Assembly: GCA_964557245.1 (NCBI GenBank)
Contig: CAZKZR010000001.1
Coordinates: forward strand, 1-27,093
Direction: 5' to 3'
Source: an uncultured Anaerolineaceae bacterium
Lineage (GTDB): Bacteria > Chloroflexota > Dehalococcoidia > Tepidiformales > Tepidiformaceae
DNA: 27,093 bases
Below are positions 6,268 to 14,666 of this stretch, piece by piece (within the stretch, counting starts at the first letter, position 1; every line of letters begins with the position of its first letter). The translations under genes were made by a program, and so were the position numbers. The notes under the pieces are model-generated. The model did not search any database. It worked only from the letters and a program-made list of their open reading frames with translations, and had not been told where the DNA came from.

Positions 6268-7314
6268 ATGACGCAGGCGCCGGGACTCGAAACGGAAGCT
6301 GAACTCCTCCGCATGGCCCAGGGCCTGCGCGATGCGCTGGGCGCGCCCGCGCCGGTAGCGCTCTCCCGCCGCGTCATCGCCGGATTCCGCGGCAAGGCCC
6401 GCATGTATTACTACCCGCCGAAAGACGGCGGCCGGTTCAAGACGCCGCTCCTGCTCTTCCCCTACCTGGGCATCAGCAGGCCGTACATCTTCGACCTCCG
6501 TCCCGGTGAATCGTTCGCGGAGTTCCTCTATGAAGAGGGGATCCCGTTCTACCTCGTGGACTGGGGCATTTTCGGGCCCGAAGACCGCGAAATGGGCATG
6601 GATGACGTCATCGGAGACATGGTGCCTTCGCTGGTGCGGCAGGCCGTCGCCCACTCCGGCGCCGACGCGGTCACGCTCTTCGGCTATTGCATGGGCGTCC
6701 CCATGACCAGCTCCGCGCTCGCCTCCCAGCCGGACCTGCCGGTGAAGAACTATCTTTCCATGGTCGGTCCGATCGACTTTTCCGTCGGCGAATTTCCAAT
6801 GATGACGACCGAGGACCGCTTCGACGTGGATTCCATCGTTGAAACGTTCGACATGATGCCGGCGGAGTTCGTGCGATCCGGGTTCAAGATGCTGAACCCC
6901 ATGGGCGATATTTCTCAGGCGCAGTCGCTCCTCCAGAACGCGGCGAACCCGCAGTGGCTCATCGGCTACAAGGCGATGAACCGCTGGGCAAGCGAGTGGC
7001 TCCCCCTGCCGAAGCAGTTCTTCCGCCAGTGGGTCCGCCACTTCTACCAGGGGAATGAGCTGGTGCAGGGGAAGTTCCGCGTGCTCGGTGAAGCCGTGAA
7101 CCTGCGCGATATCACCGTCCCCGTGCTCTGCGTCGGCGCCAGCAAGGACGATATCGTCCCGGCGGACAGTGCCCGCGCCCTGGTCGAATCGGTCGGGAGT
7201 AAGGACAAGCAGTTTGTCGAACTCGAAGGCGGCCACATCTCGGTGATTGCGGGCCGCCGCGCGAAACAGGTGGTGTGGCCGGCGTTGTTGGAGTGGCTGC
7301 GAGAGCACGACTAG
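6268..7314 (+). CDS. phaC: Polyhydroxyalkanoate synthase catalytic subunit, class III/IV-like
   Basis: GGAGG lies 7 nt before ATG 6268; 348 aa. Motifs TPLLLFPYLGISRPYIFDL, LVDWG, lipase-like box GYCMG (Cys), KDDIVP (Asp) and GGHIS (His). Confidence 0.85.
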   Translation: MTQAPGLETEAELLRMAQGLRDALGAPAPVALSRRVIAGFRGKARMYYYPPKDGGRFKTPLLLFPYLGISRPYIFDLRPGESFAEFLYEEGIPFYLVDWGIFGPEDREMGMDDVIGDMVPSLVRQAVAHSGADAVTLFGYCMGVPMTSSALASQPDLPVKNYLSMVGPIDFSVGEFPMMTTEDRFDVDSIVETFDMMPAEFVRSGFKMLNPMGDISQAQSLLQNAANPQWLIGYKAMNRWASEWLPLPKQFFRQWVRHFYQGNELVQGKFRVLGEAVNLRDITVPVLCVGASKDDIVPADSARALVESVGSKDKQFVELEGGHISVIAGRRAKQVVWPALLEWLREHD

Positions 7315-7338
7315 CGGGACGGACGGACGACGGGGAAA

Positions 7339-7407
7339 TAGCACCGACCGTAAGGGAGGCCTGCGGTGGTGTAGCTCGGGATTCGGCCTCCCTCACGGTC
7401 GGGGCTA
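7339..7407. repeat. REP-like inverted doublet (REPIN-like)
   Basis: Arm 7339-7361 TAGCACCGACCGTAAGGGAGGCC and arm 7385-7407 GGCCTCCCTCACGGTCGGGGCTA are reverse complements at 21/23 positions. Confidence 0.85.
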
Positions 7408-7454
7408 GTTCCGTCCATGGAATCGACGACCCTCCCGGGGAGGCGCGTTGATGC

Positions 7455-7979
7455 CTAGTCAGCCAATTCTCCAGGCCCCCGCGTCCCACCAAGGTCCTGT
7501 CCCTGTCCCTCGACCACGTAACGGATCGCATCCTCCATGGCTTGCCGTGTGTAGAGATACCGGGTGCTGCCATGACGGGTCCAAACTCGCTGGCCCTCAT
7601 CCACCAACCCGTCTTCTCGGAGCCGGCGAGTCGACCACGCTTTGAATGCGTTCATCACCTGCTCCGGAGAGGTGTTCGCCTTAACCACCGTGTGAACGTG
7701 ATTCGTACGCACATTCATGGCGAGCAAATCCCATGAACGGTGCTCCGCGACTGACTCGATCGCCTTCGCAATGGATGATCGGGCGTCAACTGTGAACGTC
7801 ATGGACGCTGCTGATAAGCGGCGTTTCGCCTGCGCCAACCGCGATTCGCTCGGCTCGACCGATGCCGTTACCCCGGGACTGCGCTGTCGCTCGCTGGACC
7901 CACGAGCATCACCATGCAGCCACGTTCCGTACGCAGTGAACGTGATGAGGTACGTGCCAGAGTCCTGCCGCTCCGTCAC
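7455..7979 (-). mobile_element. Y1 HUH transposase, IS200-like / REP-associated tyrosine transposase (RAYT)
   Basis: Motifs YLITFTAYGTWLHGD, HUH motif NHVH, FKAWSTRRL, VWTRHGS and catalytic Tyr in AIRYVVEGQ; 174 aa. AGGAG lies 8 nt before the GTG; palindromes flank the gene. Confidence 0.85.
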
Positions 7980-7989
7980 CGCCGGGGCT
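7971..7989. repeat. Degenerate third REP arm overlapping the transposase start
   Basis: CTCCGTCACCGCCGGGGCT matches 7388-7406 CTCCCTCACGGTCGGGGCT at 16/19 positions. Confidence 0.6.
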
Positions 7990-7990
7990 C

Positions 7991-8359
7991 CTACTTCTTC
8001 TTTTTCGTCTTCACCTTCGGTTCAGACCCGCCACCGGCGGTCTGTGCCGCGAGCAGCGCCGCCAGCGCATCGTCAATCCGGTCCATCCGCAGGAGGATTG
8101 TGTGCACCTGGTCCTGGAGGCGCTGGAACTCCACCAGCGGCACCGCCCCCACCGCCTCCACAATCGGCCCATACGCTTCGCGCGCGGCCTTCGCCATGGC
8201 GGCCCGCGCCGCCACATAGTTCTTCTCGATCTCGCCCGTCATCGCCTGGCCCTCGGGCGTGGCCGACGTAGCTTCGTACACCTGTCCCCACTGCTTCAGG
8301 AACTGGTCGCTCATCGATTTCCACTGGTTCATCAGGTCAGCAATGCCGGGCTGTGTCAT
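7991..8359 (-). CDS. Small helical protein, putative PhaE/PhaR-like PHA synthase partner or granule protein (122 aa)
   Basis: Amphipathic helices; C-terminal coiled coil VPLVEFQRLQDQVHTILLRMDRIDDAL resembles PhaE/PhaR C-termini; Lys-rich tail; close to phaC. Confidence 0.6.
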   Translation of the reverse strand: MTQPGIADLMNQWKSMSDQFLKQWGQVYEATSATPEGQAMTGEIEKNYVAARAAMAKAAREAYGPIVEAVGAVPLVEFQRLQDQVHTILLRMDRIDDALAALLAAQTAGGGSEPKVKTKKKK

Positions 8360-14612: not shown

Positions 14613-14666
14613 GGCCGCCCCCGGCACGAGGGCACGGGAGCGGCCTACGGGCACTCGTAGTGCCCG
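14613..14666. repeat. Two adjacent intergenic palindromes, GTAG-type REP-like
   Basis: 14613-14622 GGCCGCCCCC and 14636-14645 GGGAGCGGCC pair at 9/10, preceded on the minus strand by GTA(G). 14648-14666 is CGGGCACT-cgt-AGTGCCCG (8/8). Confidence 0.6.

Follow-up and report, generated by a model that had tools for sequence, protein, structure and literature searches.

A probable resident class 3 TnpAY1 gene with cognate mini-hairpins beside phaC in Tepidiformaceae (Chloroflexota)

Is a Y1 HUH nuclease gene that is bordered by inverted hairpins, and that faces a polyhydroxyalkanoate (PHA) synthase-like gene, part of a mobile insertion sequence (IS), part of a resident system of repetitive extragenic palindromes (REPs), or neither? 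The question is raised by positions 7455–7979 (minus strand) of the 27,093-nt contig studied here (the window, i.e. the whole stretch that was analysed), where an open reading frame (ORF) of 174 aa with a GTG start is followed by an inverted doublet of hairpin arms and then by a convergent phaC-like gene. A sequence-only reading of this DNA had proposed a domesticated REP-associated tyrosine transposase (RAYT) with a non-GTAG class of REP. The evidence assembled below makes it probable that the gene encodes a resident, single-copy class 3 TnpAY1 with cognate hairpins, REPtron-like in layout and neither a classical IS200 transposase nor a class 2 RAYT. The earlier call was largely right, although not new; what is new here is the association of gene and hairpin in 48 of 80 loci, the covariation within the hairpin, the Tepidiformaceae host, the empty and filled sites, and an 83-nt variation between strains.

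TnpAY1 enzymes were divided by Quentin, Siguier, Chandler and Fichant (2018, BMC Genomics 19:475, PMC6006769) into class 1 (IS200), class 2 (TnpAREP/RAYT) and class 3, a small addition of theirs that was defined on 24 proteins from Planctomycetes, Acidobacteria and Proteobacteria and proposed as an evolutionary intermediate leading from IS200 transposases to domesticated RAYTs. Class 3 is characterized by the motifs NHVH, W[TA] and YV[VI][AENY]EQ (Y----Q), a median length of 178 aa and ∼1.2 copies per genome, and half of its proteins are without HUH or Y motifs (PMC6006769). Its genes are bordered by ‘atypical secondary structures’ with a CnGA foot, of which there are ∼600 copies in Solibacter usitatus, and Table S1 of that paper gives the hairpin as ..CGACC-GTNA-GGGAG.., with tandem G.A mismatches, in Solibacter, Legionella and Planctomyces (entries include AGCCGCGACCGTCAGGGAGCGGTCG, folded.(((((..((....))..)))))..; and, for Legionella, CCGAGCCGCGACCGTAAGGGAGCGGA). 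Among the papers searched, no other one dealt with class 3.

The window protein matches Pfam Y1_Tnp (PF01797) with an E-value of 1.5e-9 (38.4 bits against a cut-off of 23), and it scores under the cut-offs of both the NCBIfam IS200 transposase model (NF033573; 35.3 bits, cut-off 55) and the RAYT model REP_Tyr_transpos (NF047646; 29.7 bits, cut-off 80). Its HUH motif is H94-V-H96 within TNHVH, its family signature is W133-T-R-H-G-S-T (VWTRHG), and YVVEGQ supplies Y154 as the putative nucleophile and Q159 as the putative metal ligand, at a Y-to-Q spacing of 5. The one deviation from the class 3 motifs is G instead of E before the Q, and G is the consensus of 61 homologues (YVxEGQG); the window protein keeps every one of the 11 residues that are invariant, and of the 23 that are near-invariant, in the alignment of these sequences (A1). 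An AlphaFold2 model (predicted local distance difference test score 90) has the TnpA fold of the Y1 HUH superfamily, with H94-V-H96 on strand 94–100 and Y154 on the C-terminal helix 145–157, as well as an additional β-hairpin and helix between β1 and αA (residues ∼25–55). The top 30 Foldseek matches of the model are all of the IS200/IS605/TnpAREP type (IS200, ISDra2, IS608, TnpAREP; probability 1.0), and the nearest solved proteins by sequence profile are IS200-type, including ISDra2 (E 0.003–0.04), with TnpAREP 4ER8 not among the matches of this search of PDB sequences.

Since the NHVH, W-T and YVVEGQ motifs, the length and the hairpin (the window arms, CCGACCGT[AG]AGGGAGG, have the Table S1 form) all match the description of Quentin et al. 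(2018), we assign the gene by sequence to class 3, a kind already described, and neither to the class 2 RAYTs nor to a new REP class. The window arms do not have the CnGA foot of class 3. As to the RAYTs, the protein has YVVEGQ and no Y---NP, the feet are ATAG/CTAG rather than GT[AG]G, and neither the contig nor three metagenome assemblies yielded dispersed copies, so that the RAYT label of the sequence-only reading is not upheld; its non-GTAG hairpin class is real and had already been listed in Table S1 of PMC6006769. As to IS200/IS605, there is no Y---Q, the gene is single-copy in the contig, its downstream arms are inverted, no tnpB is present among the window genes or the neighbours of the gene (as the earlier reading had stated), and its syntenic alleles are only 54–57% identical. 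The class 3 family is sizeable (827 clusters at 50% identity with E ≤1e-30; >1,200 matches in a word-indexed search) and has a patchy, cross-phylum distribution in which the best matches are only ∼50% identical to the window protein; a scan of 2.9 million viral contigs turned up no relative. A number of very strong class 3 matches (P0244, P0246, P0247, P0249, P0250, P0269, P0323, P0324 and P0326; E ∼1e-55 to 1e-68) lie inside predicted proteins of 690–1579 aa, which could be true fusions or gene calls that cross hairpin arrays.

The doublet itself, between the stops of the HUH gene and of the convergent phaC-like gene, consists of two arms of 28 nt each that are 89% complementary and 23 nt apart, with a common 23-nt unit (TAGC-N-CCGACCGT-N-AGGGAGGCC) as had been read earlier. 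The proximal arm (7385–7412, minus strand) starts ∼43 nt past the HUH stop in gene orientation and has the foot CTAGCC, the core CCGACCGTGAGGGAGG (7402->7387) and then CC, whereas the distal arm (7334–7361, plus strand) is inverted with respect to the gene, starts 20 nt past the phaC stop and has the foot ATAGCA, the core CCGACCGTAAGGGAGG at 7344–7359 and then CC. An exact 16-mer core, CCGACCGTNAGGGAGG, is thus present in both arms, at 7344–7359(+) and 7387–7402(−), and with ≤2 mismatches it occurs nowhere else in the 27-kb contig; the longer feet of the arms are AATAGCA and ACTAGCC. The 23-nt loop between the arms (7362–7384) is not conserved, as L118, a related locus, has an unrelated spacer of ∼58 nt. 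As DNA the 96-nt doublet folds with z ∼−6 (0/200 shuffles fold as well), and as RNA it gives a very stable hairpin between the convergent genes (z −5.7); it has no Rfam family match. A GTAG-led palindrome at 14613–14666 (GGGCACTACGAGTGCCCGTAGGCCG...) has nothing in common with the class 3 hairpin, and the window contains no further copy of it.

Arms on both sides of the gene had been claimed, and here the downstream doublet is intact while the upstream stretch (7971–7989, minus strand; AGCCCCGGCGGTGACGGAG), which spans the GTG start and matches at 16/19 positions, may be a decayed upstream arm and is only a suggestive relic. It has four mismatches to the 15 specified core positions (chance expectation ∼0.024 per 100-nt single-strand zone) and would not fold, and its orientation fits the family layout described below. 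A decayed arm is plausible because the related locus L207 keeps an intact upstream arm in gene orientation, there lying beyond a PAP2 gene; alternatively, the GCCCCGG part may derive from the ancestral spacer between phaC and the small gene on its other side, as the spacer of L208, a relative without the HUH gene, has CCGGGGC in common with it.

For each arm the fold first suggested is a mini-hairpin of the form CC / G.A A.G / CC / GTNA / GG / G.A A.G / GG. The instances used for covariation were anchored on the invariant inner 13 nt only, which left the outer positions free to vary. At pair (0,15) they comprise 95 C-G, 57 G-C, 8 A-T and 3 G-T against 4 non-pairs, i.e. 98% paired compared with 49% in shuffled sets (0/1000 reach this), and pair (−2,17) is 69% paired compared with 46% (0/1000), whereas pair (−1,16) is C-G in 179/185 family instances. 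A hairpin within each arm is supported, because these closing pairs covary. Conservation of the core is high, with 13/16 positions ≥93% invariant among 186 instances from ≥5 phyla. The tandem G.A fold that had been suggested is in this way strengthened by covariation, although its loop is G-T-N-A with any base in third place and not strictly GNRA, and nearest-neighbour parameters predict no fold. The common family feet are GAG, GTAG or GAAG; the TAG foot of the window is a sub-variant, since it recurs in Dehalococcoidia genomes.

An unbiased view of the association between hairpin and enzyme was obtained from 80 metagenome homologue loci, fetched via the 61-sequence protein alignment and searched for the core with ≤2 mismatches within 400 nt of the gene. 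The core is present in 48/80 of these loci, at a density of 2.24/kb near the gene and 0.17/kb further off (13-fold), with 0.35 matches in total in shuffled flanks. Together with the Pfam match, this bears out the earlier proposal of a Y1 HUH enzyme with cognate hairpins. The layout is regular: in 41/48 loci the upstream motif closest to the gene lies on its strand, and in 30/43 the closest downstream one is inverted, just past the stop; 13/43 loci, like the window, have a gene-strand copy first on the downstream side and an inverted copy after it. Gene and motif also occur together at L019, L036, L104, L121 and L118. A separate 18-mer scan of species-representative genomes (pattern CCGACCGTNAGGGAGGCC, which is biased to a GGCC tail foreign to the wider family) returned ≥117 loci, many of them chance or coding matches and at least four encoding an HUH homologue; the 18-mer is recurrent in some Dehalococcoidia metagenome-assembled genomes (MAGs), with at least 22 exact copies on six contigs of STL-CHL37, often in tandem series, and among the matches listed it is also found in Pyrinomonadaceae, Blastocatellia and Planctomycetota.

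Several homologue loci have features of their own. Downstream of the gene, L203 (3509–4385) carries a 38-nt unit 23 times over (95% identity), and upstream of it (2747–2912) a 44-nt unit ∼4 times; a CRISPR-like array was considered there on account of the regular spacing and rejected, the 38-nt series being a plain, satellite-like tandem repeat without unique spacers. Head-to-tail mini-hairpin arrays lie beside homologues also in L184, L002, L062 and L096, and the arm series of STL-CHL37 have periods of 116–170 nt. At L036 (7778–7953), which also carries a duplicated arm and a 5' gene fragment, and at L121 (5975–5990), the upstream arm ends 4–10 nt before the start codon, and its AGGGAGG would be a Shine–Dalgarno sequence sequestered by the hairpin, like the translational occlusion of IS200. 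Finally, many Actinomycetota genomes (L013, L017, L018, L021, L022, L026, L028, L041, L057, L071, L088, L113, L114 and L116) have an identical 18-mer, CCGACCGTGAGGGAGGCC, within conserved surroundings (GGTAAG...CAACTCCCCGGCGGG...), and at L026 Rfam matches a group II intron (D1-D4) ∼300 nt upstream of it. These loci were rejected as REPs on account of the conserved flanks and the nearby intron match of L026; within group II introns the 18-mer would seem to form a GNRA hairpin that contains tandem G.A pairs, which is either coincidental or a case of structural convergence.

How long the module has stood at this site may be read from its relatives. The host belongs to Tepidiformaceae (Chloroflexota), its phaC being 88% identical to that of named MAGs, and the HUH gene is found with the same neighbours in L204/L205 (a 98% identical strain), L118 and L207. 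In these filled sites the neighbour genes are 82–93% identical and the HUH alleles only 54–57% identical to one another, yet the three syntenic HUH alleles form one clade (support 100/98) among 63 family members, and the arms that stand at the corresponding place in L118, L204 and L207 have the same core, conserved at 16/16 positions while the loop between arms has been replaced. The dN (nonsynonymous divergence) of the HUH gene is 0.44 against its own saturated dS (synonymous divergence) of 1.6–3.2, its four-fold sites being at chance identity between alleles, and is approximately eight times that of phaC (dN 0.05, dS 0.8–1.0). In contrast to the filled sites, L208 and L212 (phaC 88% identical) and L209 (81%) are empty, with 13–18 nt between the stops of phaC and the small gene and no motif, and in L211 (phaC 91% identical) the junction is rearranged and the HUH gene absent. 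The check for empty sites in relatives, which the sequence-only reading had called for, has therefore been answered, and because relatives have empty phaC/small-gene junctions the module would have arrived by insertion. Parsimony on these sequences favours a single insertion of gene and arms between the convergent phaC and small gene in an ancestor of the subclade, followed by vertical inheritance; as the host lineages are near synonymous saturation, one old insertion with fast evolution in place is sufficient. Three separate acquisitions of alleles at one hot spot were rejected, given the 100/98 clade and the near saturation of the hosts. The term domesticated thus needs qualifying: the gene is single-copy in the contig and syntenic in L118, L204 and L207, but the empty sites show arrival by insertion. 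A PAP2 phosphatase gene stands at the phaC/small-gene junction in L207 and L211; that it travelled as a passenger of the element in L207 is weakened by L211, which has PAP2 beside phaC without the HUH gene.

At present the arms differ in number between strains. Two arms are present in the window and in run X1, whereas Logan contigs of runs X2, X3 and X4 (loci L204, L205) have an extra 83 nt at the doublet, a third arm, in which the 83-nt unit consists of an arm and a 59-nt spacer ending in an apparent degenerate inverted arm. The two- and three-arm forms are a unit-number polymorphism between ∼98%-identical strains. In three metagenome assemblies with the organism at 8–9x, only the locus's own contig matches the 96-nt doublet, even at 80% likeness, in a search that reported pieces down to 21 nt elsewhere and could miss copies matching the 16-nt core alone; a fourth run, X5, had nothing matching the doublet. 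Dispersed near-copies of the arms are thus unlikely in this organism, and by the criterion that the earlier reading set itself its REP system is weakened. The HUH gene likewise has one copy in the 27-kb contig, with no second copy there, and one locus per organism-bearing metagenome assembly.

To our knowledge no class 3 TnpAY1 has been studied experimentally, and the mode of action proposed here follows the better known members of the superfamily. Each arm is, by covariation, a mini-hairpin of ∼16–20 nt that is closed by at least two G-C pairs, contains a tandem G.A/A.G internal loop, a stem of C-C/G-G and a loop of GTNA, and is preceded by a short foot (TAGC-N in the window, CnGA in most relatives), and two opposite arms could also pair into a 28-bp hairpin. 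By analogy with the TnpA of IS608/ISDra2 and with E. coli TnpAREP, an enzyme dimer would bind the mini-hairpin on single-stranded DNA and cleave nearby at a site chosen with the foot, using a metal bound by H94, H96 and Q159 and Y154 as the nucleophile, and rejoining of strands would then add, remove or move arm units. The window organism seems to carry arms at this locus alone. The variation that fits the strand-rejoining proposal is the 83-nt strain difference, together with the tandem arrays and dispersed copies in related genomes.

Several points weigh against a resident class 3 enzyme with cognate hairpins and are gathered here. Binding, cleavage site and strand transfer are for class 3 a matter of analogy only, and the 83-nt difference could stem from recombination or slippage between direct arms instead of enzyme action. 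The search for dispersed arms in this organism gave none, so the enzyme may be left without anything to mobilise. With the dS of phaC as clock, the dN/dS of the HUH gene reaches ∼0.45, by which weakened constraint is possible, and the choice between ancestrally empty sites and precise loss rests on parsimony with few lineages. The window arms are moreover a sub-variant, in which a C stands at +16 (G in 182/186 family instances) and the extra C(−1)-G(16) pair is absent, and the foot has T at −5 where 163/186 instances have G. Finally, nearest-neighbour parameters give a single arm no predicted fold (z +0.6); the stability that sheared G.A pairs and loops of the GNNA type lend to DNA mini-hairpins exceeds what standard parameters predict.

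The first alternative is that gene and hairpins make up an IS-like element, autonomous and still transposing as a whole, with the synteny reflecting a low rate or a preferred target site. Such an element would account for the empty sites in close relatives, the presence of arms both upstream and downstream of the gene in the majority of family loci, and the patchy cross-phylum distribution with best matches of ∼50% identity. It is, however, difficult to reconcile with one copy in the contig and one locus per organism-bearing assembly, with three syntenic alleles that form one clade at synonymous saturation and so indicate long residence at one site, with flanking arms that are inverted where IS200/IS605 excision requires one strand, with the decay of the upstream arm in the window, and with the lack of any relative among the viral contigs searched. 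We therefore hold this explanation to be unlikely.

Similarly improbable, in our estimate, is a further proposal in which the hairpin is constrained beyond its own enzyme, e.g. as a structured RNA or DNA signal, the module being a domesticated device for processing single-stranded DNA or 3'-ends in the service of phaC and its partner, and the two- and three-arm forms a product of present-day enzyme activity. Constraint beyond the enzyme is suggested because the core is near-invariant in ≥5 phyla and exact here despite enzymes at 55% identity; class 2 REPs co-evolve with their RAYT, a pattern that the class 3 core does not follow. The GNNA-type loop with tandem sheared G.A pairs, and the identical 18-mer in the actinobacterial loci (with the group II intron match of L026), are the points tied to such a structured signal.

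A third possibility is that the gene is a decaying, inactive former transposase and that the doublet is kept only as an RNA hairpin that terminates or stabilises the convergent transcripts. In agreement with this, the HUH gene has a dN ∼8-fold that of phaC, the upstream arm has degenerated, dispersed arms were not found, the doublet forms a very stable RNA hairpin between convergent genes, and half of the published class 3 proteins are without HUH or Y motifs (PMC6006769). Against it, four lineages retain an intact ORF at dS >1, all invariant and near-invariant residues are present in a confidently modelled protein, and the cores are base-exact even at the unpaired loop and G.A positions, which an RNA terminator would not need; relatives with empty sites, furthermore, manage with a 13-nt gap and no hairpin. 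A relic of this kind is very unlikely. That the doublet is an ordinary intergenic terminator or palindrome beside the HUH gene by coincidence, as its position between convergent genes, its absence elsewhere in the window and the lack of an Rfam match might suggest, can practically be dismissed, since the identical 16-nt core flanks homologues across several phyla, is refuted as coincidence by the density test on the 80 loci, and is the published class 3 hairpin (PMC6006769).

The phaC-like gene (6268–7314, plus strand; class III-type; 348 aa when read from M70) runs convergently to the HUH gene and matches TIGR01836 at 7e-70, under the cut-off of that model. The small conserved gene (7991–8359, minus strand) encodes ∼122 aa with a Lys-rich tail and has orthologues of 81–94% identity in L118, L207, L208, L209 and L212; it has no significant Pfam or NCBIfam family, and the label ‘PhaE-like’ given to it earlier is unconfirmed. 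Across Tepidiformaceae it faces phaC back to back, with 13–18 nt between the stops (L208:4018-4100, L209, L212). At its junction with the HUH gene (7980–7993, minus strand), the TAG stop (7993–7991) is overlapped by an AGGAG (7992–7988), followed by an 8-nt spacer and the GTG at 7979, with 11 nt from stop to GTG, exactly as first noted. Since this junction is only 11 nt long and contains no promoter-like or terminator-like site, the HUH gene is, to judge from sequence, probably co-transcribed with the small gene; the RNA-labelled runs X19 and X20 gave low-depth fragments only and no contig across 7990. On RNA the doublet is a possible 3'-end hairpin for the two convergent transcripts, a role that is not required, as relatives with empty sites have no hairpin. 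The coupling to the PHA gene that had been proposed holds as adjacency: the link is positional, through insertion between convergent genes, and there is no evidence of a functional one.

The locus is thus class 3 in a new phylum with a minor hairpin sub-variant, and no new kind of system. Class 3 is much larger than was known in 2018, and its recognition hairpin is unusually invariant, with a fold supported by covariation. The empty site, the filled site with three old alleles, and the two- and three-arm strains form a natural comparison series, which could be used to test how class 3 enzymes act and whether they are kept for the benefit of the host.

Compared with the TnpA of IS200/IS605 (IS608, ISDra2, Sulfolobus IS200; class 1.1), its closest solved relatives by profile and fold, the window enzyme shares the Q-type tyrosine motif and, by analogy only, the recognition of small imperfect hairpins on single-stranded DNA, but has a Y-to-Q spacing of 5 rather than 4, the extra β-hairpin and helix, and no tnpB; the IS hairpins lie on one strand, whereas those of the window are inverted beside a single-copy, syntenic gene. 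E. coli TnpAREP/RAYT with its REPs in bacterial interspersed mosaic elements (BIMEs; class 2.2, 4ER8) resembles the locus in its fold (Foldseek probability 1.0), in its single-copy HUH-Y1 gene, in cognate hairpins that are inverted and have a short foot on the 5' side, and in the grouping of inverted units into doublets (REPIN/BIME-like). The RAYTs differ in their Y---NP motif and GT[AG]G foot, where the window has YVVEGQ and TAG, and their REPs are lineage-specific, whereas the core of the class 3 hairpin hardly varies from phylum to phylum. REPINs (Bertels & Rainey 2011) similarly vary in unit number between close strains, but number tens to hundreds of copies replicated by a class 2 RAYT, whereas only gene-adjacent copies were detectable for the window. 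Against class 3 as published (Quentin et al. 2018), the window differs in its Chloroflexota host (Tepidiformaceae), a phylum outside the published set, in its TAGC-N rather than CnGA foot, in its C-G variant of the closing pair with the extra C-G below it missing, and in having none dispersed that we could see as opposed to ∼600 in Solibacter. It agrees with that class in the motifs NHVH, W[TA] and Y----Q, the size of ∼175 aa, the extended conserved N-terminus, to judge from the contig and the metagenome assemblies a low copy number, the hairpin with two 2-nt internal loops and a layout that is REPtron-like rather than IS-like.

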